Assembly: GCA_036824855.1 (NCBI GenBank)
Contig: DAISZK010000003.1
Location: 5,933-69,932, forward strand
Direction: 5' to 3'
Source of the DNA: Chthoniobacterales bacterium
Lineage (GTDB): Bacteria; Verrucomicrobiota; Verrucomicrobiia; Chthoniobacterales; UBA6821
Length of the DNA stretch: 64,000 nt
Shown here: piece after piece, positions 46,052 through 59,830 of the stretch
How positions within the stretch are numbered: the first letter of the stretch is position 1
How the letters are laid out: each line of letters starts with the position of its first letter
Translations under genes and position numbers: made by a program
The notes under the pieces: generated by a model
The model's input: the letters and a program-made list of their open reading frames with translations, nothing else
Database searches by the model: none
Told to the model about the DNA's origin: nothing

Positions 46052-47449
46052 TCAGATGCTCGGCGGTTTGGATTTCCTCATGCCAATCTGAGCAAGATGA
46101 CGATGCAGGGTGCGGCGGCTGATGCCGAGCTTTTTTGCCGCCATCGTGCGATTGCCTGCGCAATCCTCCAGGGCCTTGTGGATCACGGTGGCCTCGATTC
46201 GGGCTAGATTCATCTCACCCTCTCCAAGCGGTGTGGAAGAGGCTCGCAGGGAAGCAGGAAGATCACCCGGCGCGAGTTCCTTTCCGTTTCCCAGCACGAC
46301 GGCATGCTCCACGGCGGCTCGGAGCTCACGGATGTTGCCGGGCCATGCATGGGTCTCGAGGGCTTCCATGGCTTCCGGGGTGAAGTGGCGCTCGGGTTTG
46401 TCATGCTCCTTGGCCATTTCCTTGAGGAAGGCACCGACTAACAGTGGGATATCCTCGGGGTGAGTGCGAAGAGGCGGCATGGTGAGGGGAACCACGTTAA
46501 GGCGGAAGAACAGATCCTCGCGGAATGTCCCCGCGCGTACCATGGCGGCCAGATCCTTATTGGTGGCTGCGATCAGTCGGACATCTGAGTTGAGGGTCTG
46601 GTTGCCACCGACACGTTCAAAGCTCTTTTCGCCCAGTACGCGCAGGATTTTGACCTGGACTGTTGGGTCGATCTCGCCGATTTCGTCGAGGAACAGCGTG
46701 CCGCCGGAGGCCTGTTCGAAGCGCCCGATTCTCCGCTCGCCTGCCCCGGTGAAGGCTCCCTTTTCATGGCCGAAGAGTTCACTCTCCAGCAACTGGGGGG
46801 AGAGGGAAGCGCAATGAACCGCGACAAACGGCTTCTCCGCGCGGGTGCTCAGATCATGGATTGCCTTGGCAGCGACTTCCTTTCCCGATCCGCTCTCTCC
46901 TTGGATGAGAACCGTTGCTTTGCTGGGAGCCACCTGTCGGATGGTCTCGAAGACCCGCTCCATCACCGGAGATCGGCCGATCATTCTGTCGGGAGTTCGC
47001 GTTTTTCGTACTTCCTGGCGGAGTTCGAGATTTTCTGCCTGCACCGTTCTTTCTCGGAGGGCGCGCCGGATGAGCATCTCCAGGCGATCGATATTCACCG
47101 GCTTGGTCACGAAATCATAAGCTCCCTGACGCATCGCCTCGACCGCTGTATCCACAGATCCGTAAGCCGTCATCATGATACAGATCGGCGGATCGGAACG
47201 CTTTAGGATCTTCCTCATCAAATCCATGCCATCGTCGGCGCCGAGTTTCAGGTCGGTGAGGACGAGGTCAGGAGGATCTGCATCGATCAAGGCAAGAGCT
47301 CCCGCCTCATCCGATGCCAGCGATACGTCGAAATATTCTTCCAGAACAGCCCTCAATCCATCACGAGTATTCTTTTCGTCATCAACGATTAAGATGGTCT
47401 GTTTCACGGGAATTGAGACATCTTGGCACAACAACCCTTGAATCCGCAA
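46052..47449 (-). CDS. Sigma-54-dependent response regulator (NtrC family enhancer-binding protein)
   Basis: 465-aa ORF. The REC domain shows ILIVDDEKNTRDGL and LVLTDLKL. The AAA+ domain carries Walker A GESGSGKE and the sigma-54 contact loop GAFTGA. A C-terminal Fis-type HTH reads AGNRTMAAKKLGISRRTLHRHL. Confidence 0.9.
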   Translation of the reverse strand: MRIQGLLCQDVSIPVKQTILIVDDEKNTRDGLRAVLEEYFDVSLASDEAGALALIDADPPDLVLTDLKLGADDGMDLMRKILKRSDPPICIMMTAYGSVDTAVEAMRQGAYDFVTKPVNIDRLEMLIRRALRERTVQAENLELRQEVRKTRTPDRMIGRSPVMERVFETIRQVAPSKATVLIQGESGSGKEVAAKAIHDLSTRAEKPFVAVHCASLSPQLLESELFGHEKGAFTGAGERRIGRFEQASGGTLFLDEIGEIDPTVQVKILRVLGEKSFERVGGNQTLNSDVRLIAATNKDLAAMVRAGTFREDLFFRLNVVPLTMPPLRTHPEDIPLLVGAFLKEMAKEHDKPERHFTPEAMEALETHAWPGNIRELRAAVEHAVVLGNGKELAPGDLPASLRASSTPLGEGEMNLARIEATVIHKALEDCAGNRTMAAKKLGISRRTLHRHLAQIGMRKSKPPSI

Positions 47450-48721: not shown

Positions 48722-51193
48722 TCACTGCACGGTCACACTCTTGGACACCTCAGTAGCTGTATTGTAATTTGCATCGCCTGCCTGCGACGCCTTGAGCGAG
48801 GTAACTCCCTTCGTCTTTACCGTAGCTGTCGATCCAGAGATCGAGATGACGTTGGTAGCACTGCTTGTATAAGTCAGCGGTAGCCCCGAGGTGGAGCTAC
48901 CGGAAAGGGTGAAGCTTTTGGTAATTGCGATGGCAACCGGCGAAGTCGGGTTGAAGGTGATGGTCTGACCAGCCTTGTTTACCGTCACCGTTTTGGCAAC
49001 GGGTGTTGAGGCAAGGTAATTGCTGTTGCCGGCTTGGGTTGCCGTGATAACCGATGAGCCAGCTCTCTTGATCGTTGCAGTGCTTCCGGAGATCGTGATC
49101 ACATTCGTATTGCCGCTGGTGAAGGTGACGGTGCCTCCAGGTGCCGTGGCAGCAAGGGCGAATGTTGCTCCATTTGAATAAGTGCGGTTTGATGGCTGAA
49201 CGAAGGTAATCGGATTGGAAACTTGGCCGTAGAGTGGTGTTAGCTTGCGGATTGCACTATTGAGATAATCTGCTACGTAGACATCCCCGACTCCATCTAC
49301 TGCGATACCTAGAGGCACACTGAATTTAGCATTCGTGCCTATTCCATCAGCAAAACCCTGCGTCCCATTTCCAGCAATGGTGCCAACCATTCCATTGCTA
49401 CTTATTTTTCGTATCGCGCTATTCGAATTATCCGAAACATAAATATTATATTCTCCATCTATTGCAACTCCACTCGGCCAATCGAACGTCGCGTTCGTAC
49501 CTTTTCCATTAAGAAAACCTTGAGATCCATTACCAGCCAACGTCGTAACCATACCATCACTGCCTATCTTACGAATCGCGTTGTTCCCCTTATCTGCCAC
49601 ATACACACAACCTGATGAATCCACCGCTACACTAAATGGATAATTGAACGTCGCGTTAGTACCCCTTCCATTAAGAAAACCTTGCGATCCATTACCAGCC
49701 AACGTTGTCATTACACCATTAGAACTAATTTTACGAATTGCATTGTTTCCAGAGTCTGCAACATAAACATTATGGAAACCATCTATAGCTACACTTTTAG
49801 GCATACTTAAAAATGCATTAGTTCCTATGCTATTCACAAAACCTGATGTTCCGTTTCCTGCAAAGGTCGTTACCACGCCATTGCTTGTGATTTTTCGAAT
49901 TGCGTTATTTTCTGTGTCAGCAACAAAGACGTTTCCAAATCCATCTATTGCAACATCATTTGGATGATTGAATGTAGCGTGCGTGCCCGTTCCGTCGGCA
50001 AGGCCAATATTTCCATTCCCAGCAAGAGTACTCACTACCCCATTGCTGCCAATCTTTCTGACCGCATTATTCCAAGTGTCAGCCACATAAGTATTTCCCA
50101 ATTGATCCACCTGAATGCCTGAGGGACTGTCAAAGCCAGGGAGTAGTATCGCCCCTGCCAAAGTAGTCACCACGCTATTTGTGCTTACCTTACGAATAGC
50201 ATTATTATTACAATCAGCTACATAGACATTTCCAACTTTATCCAAAGTTAACCCTACAGGATTATTAAAAGTTGAATTCGTGCCAATTCCATTGAAAAAC
50301 CCCTGCATGCCATTACCTGCGATCGTAGTAACGATGCCACTTGCACTAATCTTACGGATCGTATTGTTCCCGGAATCGGCAACATAAATATAGCCACTTC
50401 CGTCGACGGCGACTGATTCGGGACTAGCGAACAAATCACTGGCTAATGTTGTAACTACTCCATTGCTGCCAATTTTCCGGATCGCATTGTTTGCCATTTC
50501 CGACACATAAACATTACCTGATCCATCTACTGCAACTCCAGTAGGCCAACCAAATGAGGCGTGTATTGCAATCCCATTGATTAAACCTTGGGTTCCGTTG
50601 CCAGCTAATGTTGTCACTACTCCAGTACTACTGATTTTTCGGATCACATTGTTACCTGAATCGGCCACGTAGAGATTTCCTAATCCATCTACGGCAACCC
50701 CTTGAGGCCCTGCAAAAGAAGCATTTGTACCTGTTCCATTTGAAAACCCCCAGGTTCCTCCTGCCAAGGTGGTTACAGCACCATTGCTAGTGATCTTGCG
50801 AATCGCATTGTTTCCAGAGTCAGCGACATAAACATTTCCTAATCCATCTACAGCAACCCCTTGAGGGCCTGCAAAAGAAGCATTTGTACCTGTTCTATTT
50901 AAAAACCCCCAGGTTCCTCCTGCCAAGGTGGTTACAGCACCATTGCTAGTGATCTTGCGAATCGCATTGTTTCCAGAGTCCGCGACATAAACATTTCCTA
51001 ATCCATCTACGGCGACATTAACTGGAGAAAAAAATCGAGCATTCGTTCCTGTTCCATCCACCCGATTTGATGGGGCGACCAATGTGGTCACAGCGTAGTT
51101 GGTGGGAATAGCAGCATCAAGCGAGCAAGAGGCCCAAAAAGCTGAGCTCAGGAGGATCAGCAATACTGAAAAGTTAGATTGTTTGGTTTTCAT
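48722..51193 (-). CDS. Secreted NHL-repeat protein with C-terminal Ig-like domains
   Basis: 823-aa ORF with signal peptide MKTKQSNFSVLLILLSSAFWASC. It has roughly 13-14 repeats of the form P.GVAVDG.GNVYVADSGNNAIRKI..NG.VTTLAG.G. The C-terminus holds two Ig-like modules (TVTFTSGNTNVITISGSTATIKRAGSSVITATQAGNSNY and LTYTSSATNVISISGSTATVKTKGVTSLKASQAGDANY). Confidence 0.8.
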   Translation of the reverse strand: MKTKQSNFSVLLILLSSAFWASCSLDAAIPTNYAVTTLVAPSNRVDGTGTNARFFSPVNVAVDGLGNVYVADSGNNAIRKITSNGAVTTLAGGTWGFLNRTGTNASFAGPQGVAVDGLGNVYVADSGNNAIRKITSNGAVTTLAGGTWGFSNGTGTNASFAGPQGVAVDGLGNLYVADSGNNVIRKISSTGVVTTLAGNGTQGLINGIAIHASFGWPTGVAVDGSGNVYVSEMANNAIRKIGSNGVVTTLASDLFASPESVAVDGSGYIYVADSGNNTIRKISASGIVTTIAGNGMQGFFNGIGTNSTFNNPVGLTLDKVGNVYVADCNNNAIRKVSTNSVVTTLAGAILLPGFDSPSGIQVDQLGNTYVADTWNNAVRKIGSNGVVSTLAGNGNIGLADGTGTHATFNHPNDVAIDGFGNVFVADTENNAIRKITSNGVVTTFAGNGTSGFVNSIGTNAFLSMPKSVAIDGFHNVYVADSGNNAIRKISSNGVMTTLAGNGSQGFLNGRGTNATFNYPFSVAVDSSGCVYVADKGNNAIRKIGSDGMVTTLAGNGSQGFLNGKGTNATFDWPSGVAIDGEYNIYVSDNSNSAIRKISSNGMVGTIAGNGTQGFADGIGTNAKFSVPLGIAVDGVGDVYVADYLNSAIRKLTPLYGQVSNPITFVQPSNRTYSNGATFALAATAPGGTVTFTSGNTNVITISGSTATIKRAGSSVITATQAGNSNYLASTPVAKTVTVNKAGQTITFNPTSPVAIAITKSFTLSGSSTSGLPLTYTSSATNVISISGSTATVKTKGVTSLKASQAGDANYNTATEVSKSVTVQ
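50699..51016 (-). repeat. Near-perfect in-frame tandem duplication (2 x 159 bp = 2 x 53 aa) inside the NHL gene
   Basis: Residues 60-112 and 113-165 differ only at LNR versus SNG. The DNA copies are almost identical by eye. Confidence 0.85.
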
Positions 51194-51322: not shown

Positions 51323-52159
51323 TTAGTGCTTCGGGAAAAAGGGGTTGTGCTCTCGCTCCAGAGCCACGGTCGTCAGGGGGCCGTGGCCGGGACAGAGAAT
51401 CGTCTCGGGCGGCAGGGAGAAGATCTCCTCCCTATTGGTTCGCAGGCAGTCGGCGTAGGAGACCATGGGTCCTCCCATGGATCCGGCGAAGAGGGCATCT
51501 CCCACCACGGCGACAGGGCCTTTAAGTCCACGGAGGACGTAGGTGATCCCGCCGGCAGCATGTCCCTTCGTCAGCCGTGTCGAGATGAGGAGGTTACCAA
51601 CGTGGAACTCCTTCCCCGGGGTGAAGGTCGCGATGCCAGAGACTCCCTCCCCCTCACCGATCCATGCCTCCGCTCCGGTCTTTTCAAGGATCCGATCCAG
51701 ATCGAAGAGATGATCGCCATGGCCGTGTGTCAGCAGGAGAAGCCTCAGTTTCAGCTGTTGGGTTTGCAGAAAATCGAGCATCCCAGAGGCATCGGCCCCT
51801 GTGTCAAAGGCAACAGCCTCCCGTGTCGCGTTATCCCAAGCCAGGTAGGAATGGACCTGCATGTCACTCCAATCAGAAGTGAACATGACCATTCCCTCCG
51901 GAAGATCCAGAGGTCCGGGATGGTATTTCCCCTCGGCCATCTCGAGAAGGCGTTTCGCGTCGAGACCGAGGGCTCCGGCTGCTCTCTGTAAATGAGCAGG
52001 AATCAGCACCCCCCCGAGGAGTGATAGGACTTCTTCGCGGGTGAGGCCGGAGCGCTCCGCTAGATCACCTTCCGAGAGTTCCTGACCACGTCTGGCTTTA
52101 TGCAGGACATCAACCCAAGTATCCTCAAGGGGAATCGCGGCATTGGCTGTAGAGGACAT
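51323..52159 (-). CDS. Metallo-beta-lactamase-fold hydrolase (glyoxalase II-like) with N-terminal HTH-like segment
   Basis: 278-aa ORF with the motif LLLTHGHGDHLFD (HxHxDH) and later His/Asp ligands (GHAAGG, CPGHGP). The N-terminus ELSEGDLAERSGLTREEVLSLLGG looks like an XRE-type HTH. It starts 3 nt after the upstream ABC gene's stop. Confidence 0.72.
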   Translation of the reverse strand: MSSTANAAIPLEDTWVDVLHKARRGQELSEGDLAERSGLTREEVLSLLGGVLIPAHLQRAAGALGLDAKRLLEMAEGKYHPGPLDLPEGMVMFTSDWSDMQVHSYLAWDNATREAVAFDTGADASGMLDFLQTQQLKLRLLLLTHGHGDHLFDLDRILEKTGAEAWIGEGEGVSGIATFTPGKEFHVGNLLISTRLTKGHAAGGITYVLRGLKGPVAVVGDALFAGSMGGPMVSYADCLRTNREEIFSLPPETILCPGHGPLTTVALEREHNPFFPKH

Positions 52160-52162
52160 TTT

Positions 52163-55100
52163 TTAGGTGCGGGTATCGCGGATTTGTCGTCTGAGAATGA
52201 AGAAAAGGATCACAAAGATCGCCCAGCTTGTAAGGATCATGACGGCGGAGTTAAACCAGAGCAGGGGTATGGAGAGGCCGAAGTATTGCTTCACCGGCCC
52301 GAAGAAGACATTCGGATGGTGGTTGTCGCGGTAGTCTGCCTGCTCCATCTCAGCCTTAGAGACCAGATCAAGAACCTTCTGGTTGGTGTAAAGCTGCTCG
52401 GCGGTGACGCCACTCTGATTACCAACGATTTCATCGCGCTTCAATGGAGCCCCGGCAATCACCCTGTCGATGTGGGTCATTCTCTTGTCGAGATCGGAGG
52501 GATCTTTCGCCTCCAGTCCACTCAGGATGGCCAGGAGATCCTTGAGATCATCGAGCCGATCTTCCTGGGCGTCGGTCGGTTTCTTGATTGCCGCGAGTTG
52601 ATAGATCTGACGCTGGATCCGTGCCTGCCGGAGAGCCAACGGATTCAGTTTTGCCTGGGCAAAGACAATCCCCTCGTACGACCAGCGCATCGGCATGAAT
52701 TCACAGATCAGCGGCACCTGCAGGTCGCTTCTCGGTTCCATGGCTGTTTCAGGATGGCGATTGAACCACTCATGGATCGCATGGATGAAATCGAGATTGC
52801 GGTTCATCTCCTCGTACTTGATCAGGGCGCCCCCAAGGATGATCTGGGGGATCAGGACGACGGGGATGATGTTCACGGCGGTCTTTCCCTCTCGGGCTAA
52901 CGAGGAGATCATTAGACCGATGGCGATACCGCTGAATGCAGTCAGGAACATCGCCGTGAATTCCACCCAGTAGAGTCCCCGGATAGAGACCATCCAGTCT
53001 CCGATCAGTGTGAAAAGGGCACACTGACCTACGGCGAAGAGACCAAGCGTGATCGCTTTTGCCAGCAGGTAGTAGCCGATACGGACATTCAGATTCCGTT
53101 CGCGAAGAAGGACAGGACGATCGCGGATGATATCGTCGACACTGTTTGTGAGGCCCAGAAACATCGCCACCACGAGCGAGAGAAAGAGGTAGGTGGGAAT
53201 GTGGAAGGCCGAGGCGAAGTCATAGTGCTTGCTCTCCGAGTACCGGAGGACGGCTCCGATTAAGAAAGCGAGCATCGGTGCCTCCACCAGCGTGGTGAGG
53301 AGATTCGCGCGGTTGCGCATCTTGCTGATGAATGAGCGCTGGAGCAGCACCAGGAACTGCCCCAGTTCATCCCGCCACCTTAATCCCTCCCATCCTGTGA
53401 GGCGCTGGGTGAGGCTGCTCTTTGACTCGGGGCCAGCCGGGACGGGTGTTCGCGAGGATGCAGGTTGCTGGACCTCCTTCATCAGGCGGTAGGCCTCGAA
53501 CTTGTCCCGCCAATACTCTGGGGAGAAACGCCGCGCCGGGACGAGTTGTCCCCGATTATTCTCCTCGTAGATGAGATCTCCACCCAGATCGCGCAGTGGC
53601 GTCTCCAGCACATCGAAAACGAACTCTGGTCGGGTCGTGCCGCAGGCCTGGCATCCGCCGAGTTCCGTTCCGAAGAGTTGCTCATGCTCCGCCTCTGCGA
53701 AGTAGGAGAGCATCTCCGTGGGGGTGCCGAAGAAGACGAGCTTGCCCCCTTTGTCCAGAAGGAGTGCCTTCTGGAACATCTGGAAGATCTTCGAAGTCGG
53801 CTGGTGGATCGTGACCAGAACGATCTTGTTGTGGGCCATGCCGCGGATGATTTCGATGACATGCTCGGAATCCTTCGATGAGAGACCGCTGGTCGGCTCG
53901 TCGAAAAGATAGACATCGGCCGTGCTGACCATATCGAGACCGATATTGAGTCGTTTGCGTTCGCCTCCGCTAAGGACCTTCTTGCTGGTTCCTCCCACGA
54001 CCTCCTTGCGACGTTCGTTCAGGCCAAGTTCTGCCAGTTTGCTATCGATGCGGCGCTGACGTTCGCGTCGTGAGAGATGAGGAGCACGGATGGCCGCGGC
54101 GAAGCGGAGGTTCTCCTCGATTGTCAGCTGCTCGTCGAAAGCGTCGTACTGCGGGATATAGGTGATGTACTGCAGGAGCGCATCGAGATTCCGGTAGAGG
54201 GAGCGCTGGTTGAGCTGCACTTCCCCGGCCACGGGCGGGAACTGGCCAGCCAGGGCTCGGAGGAGTGTGCTCTTGCCGCAACCACTCGCTCCCATGACAC
54301 AGACCATCTCGCCGCGATCAATCGAGAAATTGAGGTTGTCGAGGGCCGTATCGGCGCTGCGGAAACGGCAGACAAGATCGCGCACATCCAAGGTGCGGAT
54401 GATGTTCCGCTCCTCTTCGATGATGCGATCGGTGAAGTTGCAGCGGAGCACCTGTCCCGCATCGATCCGGATCGTATCACCATCGACGAGATCCATCGCT
54501 CCACGCACCGGAAGACCACGCACCACGATCGGCCTGTCTGCCTGAAGCACCTCCACGCGTCCTGTTTTCTCCTGATAATCACAGGTGATCCGCAGAGTCA
54601 CCTCACCGCCGATTCCGGGTGAGATCAGGATGTCGTCATCATCCAGGCGGCTCGGATTATTCGAGGCGATATACTCGGTCTTGGAACCCTTCAGCTCGAA
54701 GCGTCCTCCAAAAGCCCCGACTCGACGCTTGAGATCCTCCAGATCGAGTTCTCCACCGTCGCGGAAGAAGATCTTGTCCGAGAGTTGGGCCACGATGGAG
54801 GCTCCCTTGCGGAGCGGCGTGCCGCGTAGGGTTGCCCGGAGATCCTGAAGGGCCGTCACGGTCACCTTCAGTCCGAAAGCGATCTCCAGATCGCTGTCGC
54901 GGCTACGGGATTTCTCAAGGCGGACCTCCTCGTTGTTGATTGCCACGAAAATATGGGGAAGCGTCACGTTGCGCTTCGCATTGAAGTAAAAGATCAGATC
55001 CTGACTGGTGATCACCTGCTCACCCACCAGAACCCGCTGTCCCGGATAGATGCGGCAGAACTCACTCGGTTTCAAGAGGCGCCCCTGAACGATCAGGCTC

Positions 55101-55834
55101 TTGCCGGAGAGGTTCTTGAGGATGATCAGGTCGTTATGGCAGTAAGCCAGGAGTCGTTCCTCACCTGTGAAGCCCCTCAGTTCCACATCGCAGGTTGTCG
55201 GGTCCCCGAAAGAGAGCGCCTCGAGCGGCGAGGTGCCGTCATGGAAAAACTCCGCCTGGGCCTGCTCGTTGGCGTTGAGTTGGTAGACGATATCGATGGC
55301 CTGCGCGGCCATACCGAGGCATCCCATGAAGTCGTGGTAGGCGGCCACCTGCTCGGCCTTCATTCCCGAACGGGTGATCAGATCGTAGAGTTGAACTCCG
55401 AGGAGGATTTTCCGGTCATCGCTCAGTTCCGTAGAGAGCTTTGTCGCCATGGCTCCCAGATCCTGCTGCTGCTCCAGTGCCTGGCGGAAGAGCTTGCGCA
55501 GTTCGGAATAGACAGCCTCCGGATAGTCATAGCGGAGGAAGCCGAGGCTTGAGTCGATTTCCTCCTCCAGCATCTCCCCGTCGACGCGGGTGAATGCCGC
55601 AAGAACCTGAATCAGCGTGGGGAGCAGGTTGGCGCTCTCCGCGATGGTTTGGGGGCGTCGTCTCAGGCGACGCCATCGCTTCGCCACCGAGCGCTGAAGA
55701 CGCGAAGCTCCTCTCAGGATGCTATCAATCACTAGCACTCCACGGCGCGGCGCCGTGGCAGCATCATGGCTATCAGGGTACGGATCCGATCCGGCCTTCT
55801 CTGCTTCACCCGATGTCTGTGGATTGAGATCCAT
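52163..55834 (-). CDS. Multidomain ABC transporter: TerB-like + FHA-like modules + ABCG-type ATPase + ABC-2 membrane domain
   Basis: 1223-aa ORF. Walker A GASGCGKST is encoded near 54270-54294. Other ATPase motifs are signature LSGGERKRLNIG, Walker B VYLFDEPTSGLS and H-loop VTIHQP. Multiple TMs lie after about aa 830. The N-terminal modules are described in the findings section. Confidence 0.8.
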   Translation of the reverse strand: MDLNPQTSGEAEKAGSDPYPDSHDAATAPRRGVLVIDSILRGASRLQRSVAKRWRRLRRRPQTIAESANLLPTLIQVLAAFTRVDGEMLEEEIDSSLGFLRYDYPEAVYSELRKLFRQALEQQQDLGAMATKLSTELSDDRKILLGVQLYDLITRSGMKAEQVAAYHDFMGCLGMAAQAIDIVYQLNANEQAQAEFFHDGTSPLEALSFGDPTTCDVELRGFTGEERLLAYCHNDLIILKNLSGKSLIVQGRLLKPSEFCRIYPGQRVLVGEQVITSQDLIFYFNAKRNVTLPHIFVAINNEEVRLEKSRSRDSDLEIAFGLKVTVTALQDLRATLRGTPLRKGASIVAQLSDKIFFRDGGELDLEDLKRRVGAFGGRFELKGSKTEYIASNNPSRLDDDDILISPGIGGEVTLRITCDYQEKTGRVEVLQADRPIVVRGLPVRGAMDLVDGDTIRIDAGQVLRCNFTDRIIEEERNIIRTLDVRDLVCRFRSADTALDNLNFSIDRGEMVCVMGASGCGKSTLLRALAGQFPPVAGEVQLNQRSLYRNLDALLQYITYIPQYDAFDEQLTIEENLRFAAAIRAPHLSRRERQRRIDSKLAELGLNERRKEVVGGTSKKVLSGGERKRLNIGLDMVSTADVYLFDEPTSGLSSKDSEHVIEIIRGMAHNKIVLVTIHQPTSKIFQMFQKALLLDKGGKLVFFGTPTEMLSYFAEAEHEQLFGTELGGCQACGTTRPEFVFDVLETPLRDLGGDLIYEENNRGQLVPARRFSPEYWRDKFEAYRLMKEVQQPASSRTPVPAGPESKSSLTQRLTGWEGLRWRDELGQFLVLLQRSFISKMRNRANLLTTLVEAPMLAFLIGAVLRYSESKHYDFASAFHIPTYLFLSLVVAMFLGLTNSVDDIIRDRPVLLRERNLNVRIGYYLLAKAITLGLFAVGQCALFTLIGDWMVSIRGLYWVEFTAMFLTAFSGIAIGLMISSLAREGKTAVNIIPVVLIPQIILGGALIKYEEMNRNLDFIHAIHEWFNRHPETAMEPRSDLQVPLICEFMPMRWSYEGIVFAQAKLNPLALRQARIQRQIYQLAAIKKPTDAQEDRLDDLKDLLAILSGLEAKDPSDLDKRMTHIDRVIAGAPLKRDEIVGNQSGVTAEQLYTNQKVLDLVSKAEMEQADYRDNHHPNVFFGPVKQYFGLSIPLLWFNSAVMILTSWAIFVILFFILRRQIRDTRT

Positions 55835-55897: not shown

Positions 55898-56575
55898 CTA
55901 CGCCGCTTGGGAGCCTGTTCTCACCCTGCGAAGCAATCCAAAGAGAGGTACGGCAACCAAAGCCCCCAGTACCGGAGCGGTGAAATAGATCCAGAGATGC
56001 TCCAGCTGCCCGGAGACGAGGGCGGGGGCGAGTGAACGGAAAGGATTCATCGAGGCACCGCAGATCGGACCGGCAAAGAGGGCCTCAAGTCCGATGGTGG
56101 CTCCTATGGCAATGCCAGCCGTGATTCCCTTTTCCTTGGCCCCGTGGGAGACATTCAGGATCACGATCATCAGGATCAGGGTCAGCAAAAATTCCAGAAT
56201 GAAGGATTGAAGGCCGCTGCCAGTTGGCAAGGTCGCGCCCAGTTGGAGATTTCGTGGAAAGAGCAGATGAAGGGTCTCGCTGGCAGCCAGTGCGCCTGTC
56301 AATTGGGCAACGAGGTAACCGGGCAATTCGCGAAGCGGAAACCTTCCGGCGACAGTAAATCCGATGCTGACCGCCGGATTCATATGGGCTCCCGAGAGAT
56401 CCCCGAATGTGTAGATCAGAACCATGACGATGAGTCCCCAGGTGAGAGCCACACCCAGATGGGTGACCGATCCGCCGGAGACCTGATCGACCACGACCGC
56501 ACCTGTCCCGGCAAAGATCATCGTGTAGGTTCCGAGGAACTCGGCCAGCATTTTACGTGGGAGCGTGGCGTTCAT
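55898..56575 (-). CDS. MIP-family channel (aquaporin / aquaglyceroporin-like; candidate arsenite channel)
   Basis: 225-aa ORF with six TMs. The first NPA box is HMNPAVSIGF. The second box reads SMNPFRSLAP, i.e. NPF instead of NPA. It is the last gene of an ars-type operon. Confidence 0.82.
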   Translation of the reverse strand: MNATLPRKMLAEFLGTYTMIFAGTGAVVVDQVSGGSVTHLGVALTWGLIVMVLIYTFGDLSGAHMNPAVSIGFTVAGRFPLRELPGYLVAQLTGALAASETLHLLFPRNLQLGATLPTGSGLQSFILEFLLTLILMIVILNVSHGAKEKGITAGIAIGATIGLEALFAGPICGASMNPFRSLAPALVSGQLEHLWIYFTAPVLGALVAVPLFGLLRRVRTGSQAA

Positions 56576-56589
56576 CGTGTAAAAAATTC

Positions 56590-57024
56590 TTAGAGAGACT
56601 TCCCGCGCTTGAGTCCGGCGGCGTAGGCCTCGAACACGAGCTTGATCTGATCACGGACACGACGAAACTCGTTATGAACCTCCTCCTCGGTTCCCGTGGC
56701 GTGTGCAGGATCGTCAAAGCCCCAGTGAAAGCGGTTCACCTGACCGGGGAACATCGGGCAAGCCTGGTCGGCATTCCCGCAGACCGTGATGACTGTGTCG
56801 ACATTCCAGTTCAGAAACTCCTTGAGGTGCTTGGAGGTGTGTCCGGAGATATCGATACCGATCTCCTTCATCACTTCGATCGACTTCGGGTGGACATAGC
56901 CAGCAGGCTTGGAACCGGCACTGGCGACATCAATGAGATCACCTGCAGCAGATCGAAGGATGCCTTCGGCAAGGTGACTGCGGCAGGAATTGCCAGTGCA
57001 GAGGATGAGAACGAGAGGTTTCAT
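56590..57024 (-). CDS. arsC: Arsenate reductase, LMW-PTPase family (thioredoxin-coupled type)
   Basis: 144-aa ORF with P-loop [14 protein letters not shown] (CX5R). A downstream Cys pair in [13 protein letters not shown] matches the Cys82/Cys89 relay of the Staphylococcus/Bacillus type. Confidence 0.88.
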
Positions 57025-57100
57025 GGAAAGAAGAGATGAAGTGACATGTTAGAACGTGAAAAAGTTGAAAAATGGAAAAGGCTTCATGGTTGGGAAGGCT

Positions 57101-57565
57101 TCAGCAGCATCCAGTGCCACTGCAGCATGACGAATCGTTGTCATCCTTGGCGGGGGGGAGGCAGATCTCCTTGGCGAGGCAGTCGGTGTGTTTCACCCCC
57201 AGCCCAATGATCAGTTTATTGAGATCGCTCACGATGCTCACGACAGGGAACTGGGAGATGACTCCCTCCTCGTACTCCAACTCCACATCGAGATCGTCAT
57301 CTCCGAGAATGGGAGCGGCACGATCGATGATATCAACAAGCTTTCCGGCTGGCAGTCGGTGATCAGTATCCTCAGCCACCCAGGACTGAAGGCACAGGTA
57401 TGAGACTTTCCTAATCGTCGCGCCGCAATCGAGGAAGGTCTTGTCGACCCGGCCCACCTCGGTGATGTGGGCGTGCAGCGGAATCATGCCCCCATCAGGC
57501 AGGATGAACTGGAGATAGTGTTCGGAATGTTCCGTCAGGAAACGTTTGAATTCGGATGTTTTCAT
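57101..57565 (-). CDS. Uncharacterised ars-operon protein with C-terminal vicinal-cysteine tail (recalls the DUF6428 family)
   Basis: 154-aa ORF between arsR and arsC that ends …DDNDSSCCSGTGCC. The family name is from memory only and has not been verified. Confidence 0.55.
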   Translation of the reverse strand: MKTSEFKRFLTEHSEHYLQFILPDGGMIPLHAHITEVGRVDKTFLDCGATIRKVSYLCLQSWVAEDTDHRLPAGKLVDIIDRAAPILGDDDLDVELEYEEGVISQFPVVSIVSDLNKLIIGLGVKHTDCLAKEICLPPAKDDNDSSCCSGTGCC

Positions 57566-57630
57566 GGATGTTTCGGGTTCTTGGAAGGTCTTTAGAAAGT
57601 TTTGGGAATGGCTGGGAAACGGCTCGGGAA

Positions 57631-57957
57631 TCAGCAGGCACAGCGCAGTTTGGTCTCCTGCGTCTTGGAAATGAGATCGATGCAGCGGAAGAACTCGGCG
57701 AAGCAGGGGCAGGCGATCTGGTAATAGACATTCAGACCTCGCTTCTCACAGACAAGCAGGCCGGCCCGCTTCATCACTGCTAGGTGCTTGGAAAGTGTGG
57801 TGACATCGCATCCTGCCATTTCCGTGAGCTCACTCACGCAGTGTTCCCCGTGCATCAGACTCTCCATGATCAGGAGGCGCGAAGGATGAGCCATCGCCTT
57901 CACGATGGAAGCACGGGCCGCCGCATTGGATTTAAGTTTCTGAAGTTTGGGAGGCAT
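57631..57957 (-). CDS. arsR: ArsR/SmtB-family metalloregulator
   Basis: 108-aa ORF with the HTH core LIMESLMHGEHCVSELTEMAGCDVTTLSKHLAVMKRAGLLVCEKRGLNVYY. Extra Cys residues lie near the C-terminus (ACPCFAEFFRC…LRCAC). Confidence 0.85.
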   Translation of the reverse strand: MPPKLQKLKSNAAARASIVKAMAHPSRLLIMESLMHGEHCVSELTEMAGCDVTTLSKHLAVMKRAGLLVCEKRGLNVYYQIACPCFAEFFRCIDLISKTQETKLRCAC

Positions 57958-58036
57958 CTATTTGGCAAATATGCCAAATAGAAATACCAAGTCAAATTAA
58001 GTCAACGTTCTAGAATTGAAGTTGGCCATGGTGGGC

Positions 58037-59830
58037 CTAGCTTTCCTCCGCGTTCTCAGCGTCTCTGCGCGAGATATCGTTTCTGCTCTCACCAAAGACC
58101 CCGTGATGGGCTTCCGCTTCCTTGCAGAGGGAAGCGTAGAGACCATTTTCGGCCAGGAGTGACGCGTGGTTCCCTCGCTCCACGATGCGTCCTCGCTCCA
58201 TGACAAGGATCTGATTGGCATGGCGTACGGTGGAGAGTCGGTGGGCGATCACGAAGCTGGTGCGACCCTCTAGCAGATGGGCGAGCGCCTCCTGGATCAG
58301 ACGCTCGGTCGTGTTGTCGACGCTGGCGGTGGCCTCGTCGAGGACAAGGATCGGAGGATTCTTCAGCAGGGCCCGTGCGATGGAGAGGCGCTGCTTCTCG
58401 CCGACACTGAGCTTCACCCCGCGTTCCCCGAGTTGAGTATGCAGCCCTTTCGGAAGACGACGGATGAAGGCTTCGGCATTTGCGGCGGCCAAGGCTCTCC
58501 ACATTTCCTCCTCGGTGGCATCCGGCTTGGCGATGAGGAGATTGTCGGCTGTGGTTCCGTTAAAGAGGAAGCTCTCCTGCGTCACCATGGCGACCGAGCG
58601 GCGGAGTTCGCTCAGAGGAATCGAACGAATCGGACGGCCATCGAGCAGGATCTCGCCGGAGGTCAGCTCGTAGAAGCGGCTCAGGAGATGGATGAGCGAG
58701 GTCTTGCCAGCGCCAGTAGGTCCGACCAAGGCGATCATCTCGCCTGGTTTGGCATGAAGGGAGATATCATGGAGCACGGCGGTTCCGGCCTGATACTCGA
58801 ATCCCACATGCTCGTAGCGGACATCGCCCTTCAGGGCTATTTCCCCGGAGCTGGGGGCCGGATTCTGCCAGCCATCTTCGAGCGAGGCATCGAGAATGGA
58901 GAAGACGCGCTCGCTGGCGGCTCTTCCTGACTGCAGGAGTTGGTTGAGGGAGTGGAGTCGTCCTACGGGTTCGTAGAGATAGCGGGCAAGCAGGAGGAAG
59001 GCGACCAGGACACTGAGCTCCATCGTTCCATGGAGGACCTGCATTCCGCCCACAGCCAGGATCACGACCATCCCGAGATTCCCAAGGAAGTTCATCGTCG
59101 GGCTGTAGATCGCCCAGTAGCGCATCACGATCAGGGAAGCTTTGCGGAGGGCATCGCTCGAGGCGTTGAAGCGGGCGTGTTCCCGCTCCTCCGTGGCATA
59201 GGTCTTGATCTGGCGGATGCCATCCAGGTTGTCGTGCAGCAGGGAGTTGAGCGCCGAGGTCGCCTTGCGGGTGGCCCGGTAGCGCTTGCCGGCGGTCAGC
59301 GTGTAGAAGAGAGCGCCGATAGCCAGAAAGGGGACCGGGGTCAACGCGGCCAGCATCAGGCGCCCGCTGTAATGGGCCATCAGGGCCAGAACGATTCCGA
59401 TTTGCAGGAGCGCCACCGTTCCCTGCTCGATGCCGTCGATCAGGACGCGCTCCACATTGGTCACATCCTCGACAAGACGCGTCATGATGTCCCCTGTCGC
59501 GCGATTATCGAACCACGGGAGCGGCAACATCTGGATCCGTGCGTAGAGATCGCTCCGGAGGTCAAAGATCACTCGCTGCTCGAAATGATTGTTGAGAAGG
59601 ATACGGAGACAGTTCAGCAGATCCTGGGCGAAGAAGGCGGCGAGGCCCGTCACGATCAGGGGAATCAGCTTTTCGGGATGATGCTGCTTGAGGACAACCT
59701 CAATGACCTGCTGGGTGACCGCGGGGAAGACCGCCACCATCAGCGTCCCGACGATCGCACAGAACATCGTGGCCACAGCCATCCAAGGATAGCGGGCGGT
59801 GTAACCAAAGACCCGGAACAAAATTCGCAT
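58037..59830 (-). CDS. ABC exporter, fused permease/ATPase (MsbA/ABCB-like)
   Basis: 597-aa ORF with six N-terminal TMs, Walker A GPTGAGKTS, signature LSVGEKQRLSIARAL and Walker B ILVLDEATASVD. The last ~15 codons run into repeat copy C. Confidence 0.88.
   Translation of the reverse strand: MRILFRVFGYTARYPWMAVATMFCAIVGTLMVAVFPAVTQQVIEVVLKQHHPEKLIPLIVTGLAAFFAQDLLNCLRILLNNHFEQRVIFDLRSDLYARIQMLPLPWFDNRATGDIMTRLVEDVTNVERVLIDGIEQGTVALLQIGIVLALMAHYSGRLMLAALTPVPFLAIGALFYTLTAGKRYRATRKATSALNSLLHDNLDGIRQIKTYATEEREHARFNASSDALRKASLIVMRYWAIYSPTMNFLGNLGMVVILAVGGMQVLHGTMELSVLVAFLLLARYLYEPVGRLHSLNQLLQSGRAASERVFSILDASLEDGWQNPAPSSGEIALKGDVRYEHVGFEYQAGTAVLHDISLHAKPGEMIALVGPTGAGKTSLIHLLSRFYELTSGEILLDGRPIRSIPLSELRRSVAMVTQESFLFNGTTADNLLIAKPDATEEEMWRALAAANAEAFIRRLPKGLHTQLGERGVKLSVGEKQRLSIARALLKNPPILVLDEATASVDNTTERLIQEALAHLLEGRTSFVIAHRLSTVRHANQILVMERGRIVERGNHASLLAENGLYASLCKEAEAHHGVFGESRNDISRRDAENAEES
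58044..58074 (-). repeat. Short GC-rich dispersed repeat, copy C (inside the 3' end of the ABC exporter ORF)
   Basis: The minus strand reads ATCTCGCGCAGAGACGCTGAGAACGCGGAGG. It shares the TCTCGCGC-RGAGACGC…CGC-RGAG blocks with copies A and B. Confidence 0.55.

Follow-up and report, generated by a model that had tools for sequence, protein, structure and literature searches.

How might an ATP-binding cassette (ABC) transporter be controlled that carries forkhead-associated (FHA)-like folds in front of its ATPase and lacks the residues with which such folds bind phosphothreonine (pThr), and what do its neighbouring genes contribute? The question is raised by an open reading frame (ORF) of 1223 amino acids (aa) in a stretch of 64,000 nucleotides (nt) from a Chthoniobacterales bacterium (contig DAISZK010000003.1), the whole of which is called the window in the following. 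The ORF, located at 52163..55834 on the minus strand, encodes in succession a putatively TerB-like head, three FHA-like modules, an ABCG-type nucleotide-binding domain (NBD), an ABC-2 type transmembrane domain (TMD), an insert and a sixth transmembrane helix (TM6); after a spacer of 3 nt (junction TAA-AAA-ATG) it is followed on the same strand by an ORF of 278 aa (51323..52159) for a protein with a helix-turn-helix (HTH)-like N-terminus (aa ~1-95) and a glyoxalase II-like metallo-beta-lactamase (MBL) domain. On balance, the ABC protein seems to be a half-size exporter whose N-terminal TerB-like/FHA-like region exerts phosphorylation-independent control, with the MBL protein as an accessory in one sub-clade and the nearby ars genes as a neighbouring island. 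The family to which it belongs is an uncharacterised, distant relative of the Rv1747-type FHA-ABC exporters.

That the ORF represents a real and intact gene follows from 18 contigs of several metagenomes which encode the identical 1223-aa protein, and hundreds of homologues show conservation over the whole length. The coordinates of both genes and their junction agree with an earlier note on this DNA, and every motif quoted there is present in the sequence (GASGCGKST, LSGGERKRLNIG, VYLFDEPTSGLS, VTIHQP and THGHGDH, besides the N-terminal strings).

The core of the protein is that of an ABCG/ABC-2 (type V) half-transporter in the order NBD-TMD. In the ATPase domain (aa 481-715; 53690..54394, minus strand as all features of the two genes), Walker A, Q-loop, signature, Walker B and H-loop are intact, the Pfam model ABC_tran matches aa 498-649 above its cut-off (E=2.9e-30), and the motifs GASGCGKST, LSGGERKRL, LFDEPTSG and IHQP are conserved across the family alignment. 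The membrane domain with TM1 to TM5 (aa 826-1019; 52778..53359) is delineated by Pfam ABC2_membrane over the same residues (E=3.6e-26, 92.5 bits versus a cut-off of 26.9), by hydropathy and by an alignment with plant ABCG16 that covers aa 477-1007 of the target. The best PDB sequence matches of the NBD-TMD part are ABCG/PDR and ABCA exporters, so that the ABCG/White-type ATPase and ABC-2 membrane domain proposed in the earlier note are borne out. With eukaryotic ABCG half-transporters (ABCG2, ABCG5/8, ABCG16, ABCG25) the protein shares the reverse NBD-TMD order and the ABC-2 fold, whereas these lack an N-terminal regulatory region and a long insert between TM5 and TM6. Equally, the top NCBIfam model, TIGR00955 for the EPP/White subfamily, scores 243.7 bits and does not reach its cut-off of 736.35; the target therefore lies outside that subfamily.

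Six transmembrane helices are recognized by hydropathy (aa 843-864, ~877-900, 922-946, 956-981, 983-1007 and 1189-1218), with flanking charges in agreement with the positive-inside rule, and the last of these, TM6 (52181..52270), is followed by a basic C-terminal tail. The segment between TM5 and TM6 (aa 1020-1188; 52271..52777) is specific to the family and conserved across it, has no Pfam match, is longer still in relatives from Bacteroidota and is absent from L022, a Streptomyces protein of the canonical Rv1747 type (see below); family conservation and hydropathy thus uphold the long insert and final transmembrane helix described before. Considering the ABCG topology together with the positive-inside charges, these ~180 residues are predicted to reside outside the cytoplasmic membrane. 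Working presumably as a homodimer, the ABC protein would use ATP to export a hydrophobic or envelope-related molecule.

Ahead of the ATPase would lie a cytoplasmic region of ~480 residues consisting of a basic tail, the TerB-like head and three FHA-fold modules. Its first 65 residues (55640..55834), which no structural model spans, are poorly conserved, contain 13 R+K and end in a conserved basic stretch, WRRLRRRP, while the block aa ~70-480 is conserved as one unit down to 22% identity. An AlphaFold2 (AF2) model of aa 66-478, calculated with 14 diverse family members as input (predicted local distance difference test, pLDDT, 85.5; predicted template modelling score, pTM, 0.81), displays a helical head (aa ~71-199) and three beta-rich modules (~205-287, ~294-375 and ~378-476). 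Nearly all Foldseek matches of this model in the PDB are FHA domains, hits that are not assigned to single modules; the top match is the tandem FHA structure 5fwh of EssC (E=4.4e-4, 209 columns), and further FHA matches with a probability of ~1.0 comprise Ki67, CT664, FhaA and YscD. On the level of sequence, the N-terminal region, searched as a single sequence or as a profile, gave no significant match among PDB sequences; the profile search touched solely the FHA domain of FhaA (E=0.36), exactly at module 3.

The three modules are not equally FHA-like. Module 1 with its C-terminal helix (aa 205-287; 54974..55222) has an invariant N241 and aligns by hhalign with the one beta-module that the Bacteroidota relatives possess; module 2, equally with a C-terminal helix (aa 294-375; 54710..54955), is the most divergent and the least certain in its FHA-likeness; module 3 (aa 378-476; 54407..54703), the most FHA-like, abuts the NBD and carries QADRPI in place of GSxNGT. 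Profile-profile comparison with hhalign relates the modules weakly to each other (E from 2e-4 to 1e-3; module 1 with module 3, E=1.9e-4; module 2 with module 3, E=4.6e-4), and against a small canonical FHA profile module 3 scores best, in register, though weakly (E=0.0087). The triad GR, SxxH and NG, to which pThr binding is tied, is conserved in none of the three modules among 15 diverse members; in its place, the target reads SN(N)P, SPG and ADRPI. Fold matches, the alignment with L022, the absent triad and the hhalign results together support the view of three FHA-like modules with degenerate pockets, most firmly for module 3 and least for module 2. AF2, Foldseek and family alignments hence concur with the FHA-like beta-modules without canonical pThr residues postulated in the earlier note, and the AlphaFold check proposed there returned three beta-modules with FHA domains as structural neighbours.

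Among characterised proteins, the closest layout is that of Rv1747, an exporter controlled by PknF phosphorylation and by pThr-binding FHA domains (PMC3138270). L022, a canonical FHA-FHA-NBD-TMD protein with GR...SRHH...GSxNGT twice, aligns continuously by BLASTP with the target (target 420-1004 versus L022 229-775; 26% identity, E=7e-47), with QADRPI opposite GSHNGT, which substantiates the kinship with Rv1747-type proteins. Common to both are FHA-fold module(s) N-terminal to an ABCG/ABC-2 NBD-TMD half-transporter, collinear over the stretch between the last FHA module and TM5, both included, and the position of this last module (FHA-2) directly against the NBD. The differences are as evident: with three modules, none of them with pThr residues, the target has one more than the Rv1747-type proteins, it adds the TerB-like helical head and the ~180-aa insert, and it seems to possess neither a Q/P-rich phospho-acceptor linker nor a cognate kinase gene. 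Moreover, its D-loop (aa 643-655; 53870-53908) reads SGLS, as an invariant SGLS(S)xD in 15/15 diverse members and in the Bacteroidota relatives, whereas the Rv1747-type proteins, L022 included, retain SGLD.

Could the transporter, then, still be operated in the manner of Rv1747? The N-terminal tail or the linkers might be substrates of a Ser/Thr kinase encoded elsewhere, and pThr binding by the FHA-like modules might switch on or cluster the transporter. Homology and collinearity from the last module onward would fit such a mechanism, as would the fact that Rv1747 itself is so regulated (PMC3138270), and a Pkinase gene is present ~4 kb away in one related locus (L170). On the other hand, none of the three modules retains the pThr-binding residues, which the family as a whole does not conserve either, the HRDxKxxN kinase motif, a crude test, is found in no frame of the window, in accordance with the previous statement that it contains no Ser/Thr kinase, and ~90 neighbourhoods show no recurrent Ser/Thr kinase, with L170 as the sole exception. 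As furthermore the top structural match is the phosphorylation-independent EssC tandem, kinase control is held to be rather improbable. The gene in L170 (11251-12858, minus strand) encodes a Ser/Thr protein kinase of 1108 aa and is situated ~4.4 kb downstream of the ABC-MBL pair, on the opposite strand.

Control without a kinase is suggested by the comparison with EssC, whose FHA domains do not have pThr-binding residues (PMC4925161). EssC/YukB, the type VIIb secretion ATPase (5fwh, 9qks), resembles the target in that tandem FHA folds without pThr motifs are fused to a membrane ATPase; the ATPase is, however, of the FtsK/SpoIIIE type, the system is another one, and no sequence similarity is detectable between the two proteins. 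In analogy to the EssC and YscD FHA domains, the N-terminal region of the ABC protein would contact proteins or ligands irrespective of phosphorylation and in this way govern the activity or assembly of the transporter, and an Rv1747-style kinase switch would not be involved.

The seven-helix head (aa 66-199; 55238..55639) is less clear in its affiliation. The Pfam model TerB (PF05099) recognizes it with E=0.016 in the full protein and with E=4.4e-4 and 20.9 bits in a fragment; scores of 15.9-20.9 bits stay under the gathering score of 24.4, and sub-threshold matches occur in 6/14 diverse family members (best E=9.4e-5). Two Bacteroidota heads exceed the cut-off over the full profile (L011, 35.3 bits, E=1.6e-8; L008, 32.7 bits, E=1e-7), and the N-termini of the target family and of the Bacteroidota proteins, including the first beta-module, align by hhalign over 211 collinear columns (94.8% probability, E=5.4e-8; heads alone, E=3.9e-5). 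In comparison with TerB proteins, the head matches below threshold only, keeps the DG...E motif in part and is not accompanied by a ter operon. Since the Pfam and hhalign signals come without a significant fold match, the head is called TerB-like by sequence profile only, a weakly supported designation. From the TerB-like head initially described, the sub-threshold profile matches and the link to Bacteroidota remain, whereas the target itself scores under the cut-off and the fold search gave no TerB match.

The gene downstream encodes, as far as can be judged at family level, a YcbL/GloC-type glyoxalase II-like MBL with an XRE-type HTH. Pfam Lactamase_B matches the 278-aa protein (E=1.6e-14, 54.8 bits versus a cut-off of 22.7), the best PDB matches are 7ev5 (E=2.5e-20), 2xf4 and 2zwr, and THGHGDH lies opposite THAHFDH of 7ev5, with the metal site HxHxDH intact; the GloB equivalog TIGR03413 is not reached (52.4 bits versus 200.8). 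YcbL/GloC-type glyoxalase II and ETHE1-like MBLs have the Lactamase_B fold and the THxHxDH site in common with the protein, which differs from them by an additional N-terminal domain of ~95 aa, putatively of XRE-HTH type. In the target, this domain is indicated by a weak Xre-like-HTH match alone (E=0.04), and several full-length homologues (57-64% identity) carry precomputed PF01381/PF12844/PF13413 (HTH_3/HTH_19/HTH_25) assignments; the proposed combination of HTH and MBL fold accordingly holds at family level.

How closely this enzyme belongs to the transporter was assessed in 80 metagenomic loci with an ABC protein 60-100% identical to the target, which were scanned for the MBL gene by tblastn, since the calls of a crude ORF caller fell on the antisense strand at some loci (cluster 7). 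In 13/80 loci an MBL homologue (51-75% identity) immediately follows the ABC gene on the same strand, with a gap between the two of 0-46 nt in 12 of the 13 and of ~100 nt in L104, as measured between tblastn alignment ends. The frequency declines with the distance of the ABC protein, from 8/12 loci at an identity of at least 80% through 3/9 at 67-79% and 1/14 at 63-66% to 0/20 informative loci below 63%. In a reciprocal look-up, 7/7 MBL homologues (57-72% identity) follow a family ABC gene of 1201-1222 aa, and in L168 and L171 the pair is kept even though both flanks differ. These downstream counts and the reciprocal look-ups indicate that ABC and MBL form a conserved, probably co-transcribed unit in one sub-clade, which is not a trait of the family. 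A family-wide linkage was rejected on the basis of the 0/20 loci; in addition, none of five Verrucomicrobiota genome loci with the full architecture has an MBL or ars homologue within 8 kb. From the claim that the transporter is coupled to the MBL protein, the tight, conserved pair in the window's sub-clade is retained, and its extension to most of the family is not.

It might be argued that within the sub-clade the two genes form a dedicated module, in which the MBL protein makes or destroys a transported thioester or lactone, or represses the operon as an XRE-type regulator that responds to a ligand. The 3-nt spacer and shared strand, the persistence of the pair in 14 family loci and in 7/7 reciprocal look-ups, even where both flanks differ, the intact HxHxDH site and homologues with an XRE HTH domain would all suit such a module; most of the family, however, lacks the pair (0/20 informative loci below 63% identity), as do some close relatives, no MBL homologue was seen near the Bacteroidota relatives, and vertical inheritance in one lineage accounts for part of the conservation. 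A dedicated module is thus a possible, though doubtful, proposition. For the preferred reading, an exporter under phosphorylation-independent control, the HTH-MBL hydrolase would probably be an accessory enzyme or regulator in the window's sub-clade only.

Several observations weigh against this preferred reading. The target is not matched by Pfam FHA (PF00498) at E<=10, neither as full protein nor as isolated modules, and the model recognizes 1/14 family members (E=1.6e-5); the apparent loss of the pThr-binding pocket in all three modules is read from sequence alignments. A Foldseek search of the PDB with a model of the head alone (pLDDT 81.8) did not identify a significant neighbour (best E=0.54). 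The exchange of Asp for Ser in the D-loop could affect the behaviour of the ATPase, and there is no characterised homologue that fixes substrate or direction of transport. Finally, the MBL gene is missing beside the ABC gene in L087 and L088, where the ABC proteins are 93-94% identical to the target, and the pairing is therefore dispensable.

An exhaustive search recovered 246 clusters of the ABC family at 50% identity, mostly from Verrucomicrobiota, with full-length members of 1140-1275 aa, and a second homologue search recovered the same 60% clade; a scan by full-length alignment located the full architecture in at least five genome loci, each of them from Verrucomicrobiota. A sister form of ~1015-1037 aa in Bacteroidota (L006, L007, L008, L009, L011, L012, L014-L017, L019 and L020) has a single beta-module between its TerB-like head and the NBD, followed by an ABC-2 TMD, an even longer TM5-TM6 insert and a final transmembrane helix, and owing to its similar arrangement the layout spans two phyla. 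Public databases label the family generically as 'multidrug ABC ATPase' only, neither the family nor its relatives have a specific model in NCBIfam, and a description of the family was found in no paper, source annotation or curated model. The remark of the earlier note that the architecture was not known to be described stands in so far as no characterised family or paper with the same layout was retrieved.

Seen in the light of this distribution, the family and its Bacteroidota sister form could together constitute an unrecognised transport system of the diderm envelope, in which the long, presumably helical insert would serve as a periplasmic stalk that passes a lipid or glycolipid outward and the TerB-like head, as a sensor of a ligand or metal, would gate transport via the phosphorylation-independent FHA modules, a picture that we regard as speculative and on the unlikely side. 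More generally, Rv1747, the one studied case of an FHA-regulated ABC exporter, is controlled by a kinase, and the speculative picture just given, if true, would add to this switch another way of regulating ABC transporters. What is new here is an FHA scaffold that persists without its phosphopeptide pocket and is accompanied by two additions, a head of TerB-like character and a large insert. Conserved across Verrucomicrobiota, including Chthoniobacterales abundant in soil and freshwater, and present in shorter form in Bacteroidota, the family may point to an envelope export route of two diderm phyla that have received little study; substrate and gating signal, once known, would reveal how FHA folds are reused without phosphorylation, and the sub-clade pairing with the HTH-MBL enzyme offers a practical path to the substrate.

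Two side observations on the distribution can be added. In L085, L105, L110 and L111 two ORFs are called in place of one family ABC gene, which may reflect a frameshift or assembly error, and such split ORFs may be the reason for many database entries of only 450-830 aa. In Cloacimonadota, L010 (5332-8085) codes for a relative of the ABC core with a different N-terminal region of ~415 aa without a TerB or FHA profile match.

Upstream of the ABC gene, a cluster of arsR, DUF6428, arsC (low-molecular-weight protein tyrosine phosphatase type) and MIP genes extends over 55898..57957 on the minus strand, with the end of the MIP gene at 55898 separated from the ABC start by 63 nt; an ABCB-type exporter gene is likewise located upstream on the same strand. 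A functional link of the transporter to these genes had been considered conceivable in the earlier note. According to this idea, the transporter would be co-transcribed with ars as a metalloid or thiol-stress exporter for a metalloid-thiol conjugate, the TerB-like head would sense the metalloid and the MBL protein would handle a thioester. The shared strand and the 63-nt gap, devoid of a terminator-like site between the MIP gene and the ABC start, can be cited in its favour, along with the association of the TerB family name with tellurite resistance and the relatedness of the MBL protein to glyoxalase II and ETHE1. Yet, ars genes adjoin the ABC gene only in L086-L088, with proteins at least 93% identical to the target; relatives of 82-92% identity have YmdB in this place, the usual upstream neighbour in the sub-clade, more distant members have no ars genes nearby, the ABC family is far broader than the ars association, and the similarity to TerB is weak. 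As the adjacency is restricted to near-identical relatives, the link looks incidental; a functional linkage was rejected, and a metalloid exporter is considered very improbable. The cluster is an upstream island rather than a part of the ABC system, and the comparison of loci suggests that it was inserted or rearranged in the window.

In L166-L172, genes for a ParA-like protein, Amidase_3 and YmdB precede the ABC gene, at the place where the window (55898-59830, minus strand) has the ABCB exporter and the ars cluster. Neighbours in other sub-clades, mostly on the opposite strand, include MazG, a DUF6576 membrane protein, an MFS/HlyD pair, STAS, FtsH and a GT9 transferase, and across the sub-clades' neighbourhoods none points to a common substrate. 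A scan of the locus for promoters and terminators yielded no excess over shuffle expectation.

Downstream of the MBL gene, a secreted NHL-repeat/Ig-like protein of 823 aa is encoded (48722-51193, minus strand) that is variable between strains; in L084 the gene is absent and a ribosomal S21 gene comes directly after the MBL gene. Further downstream of the locus, a sigma-54 response regulator is split into two ORFs in L081 (16428-17783) and is intact in other assemblies and in the window (46052-47449).

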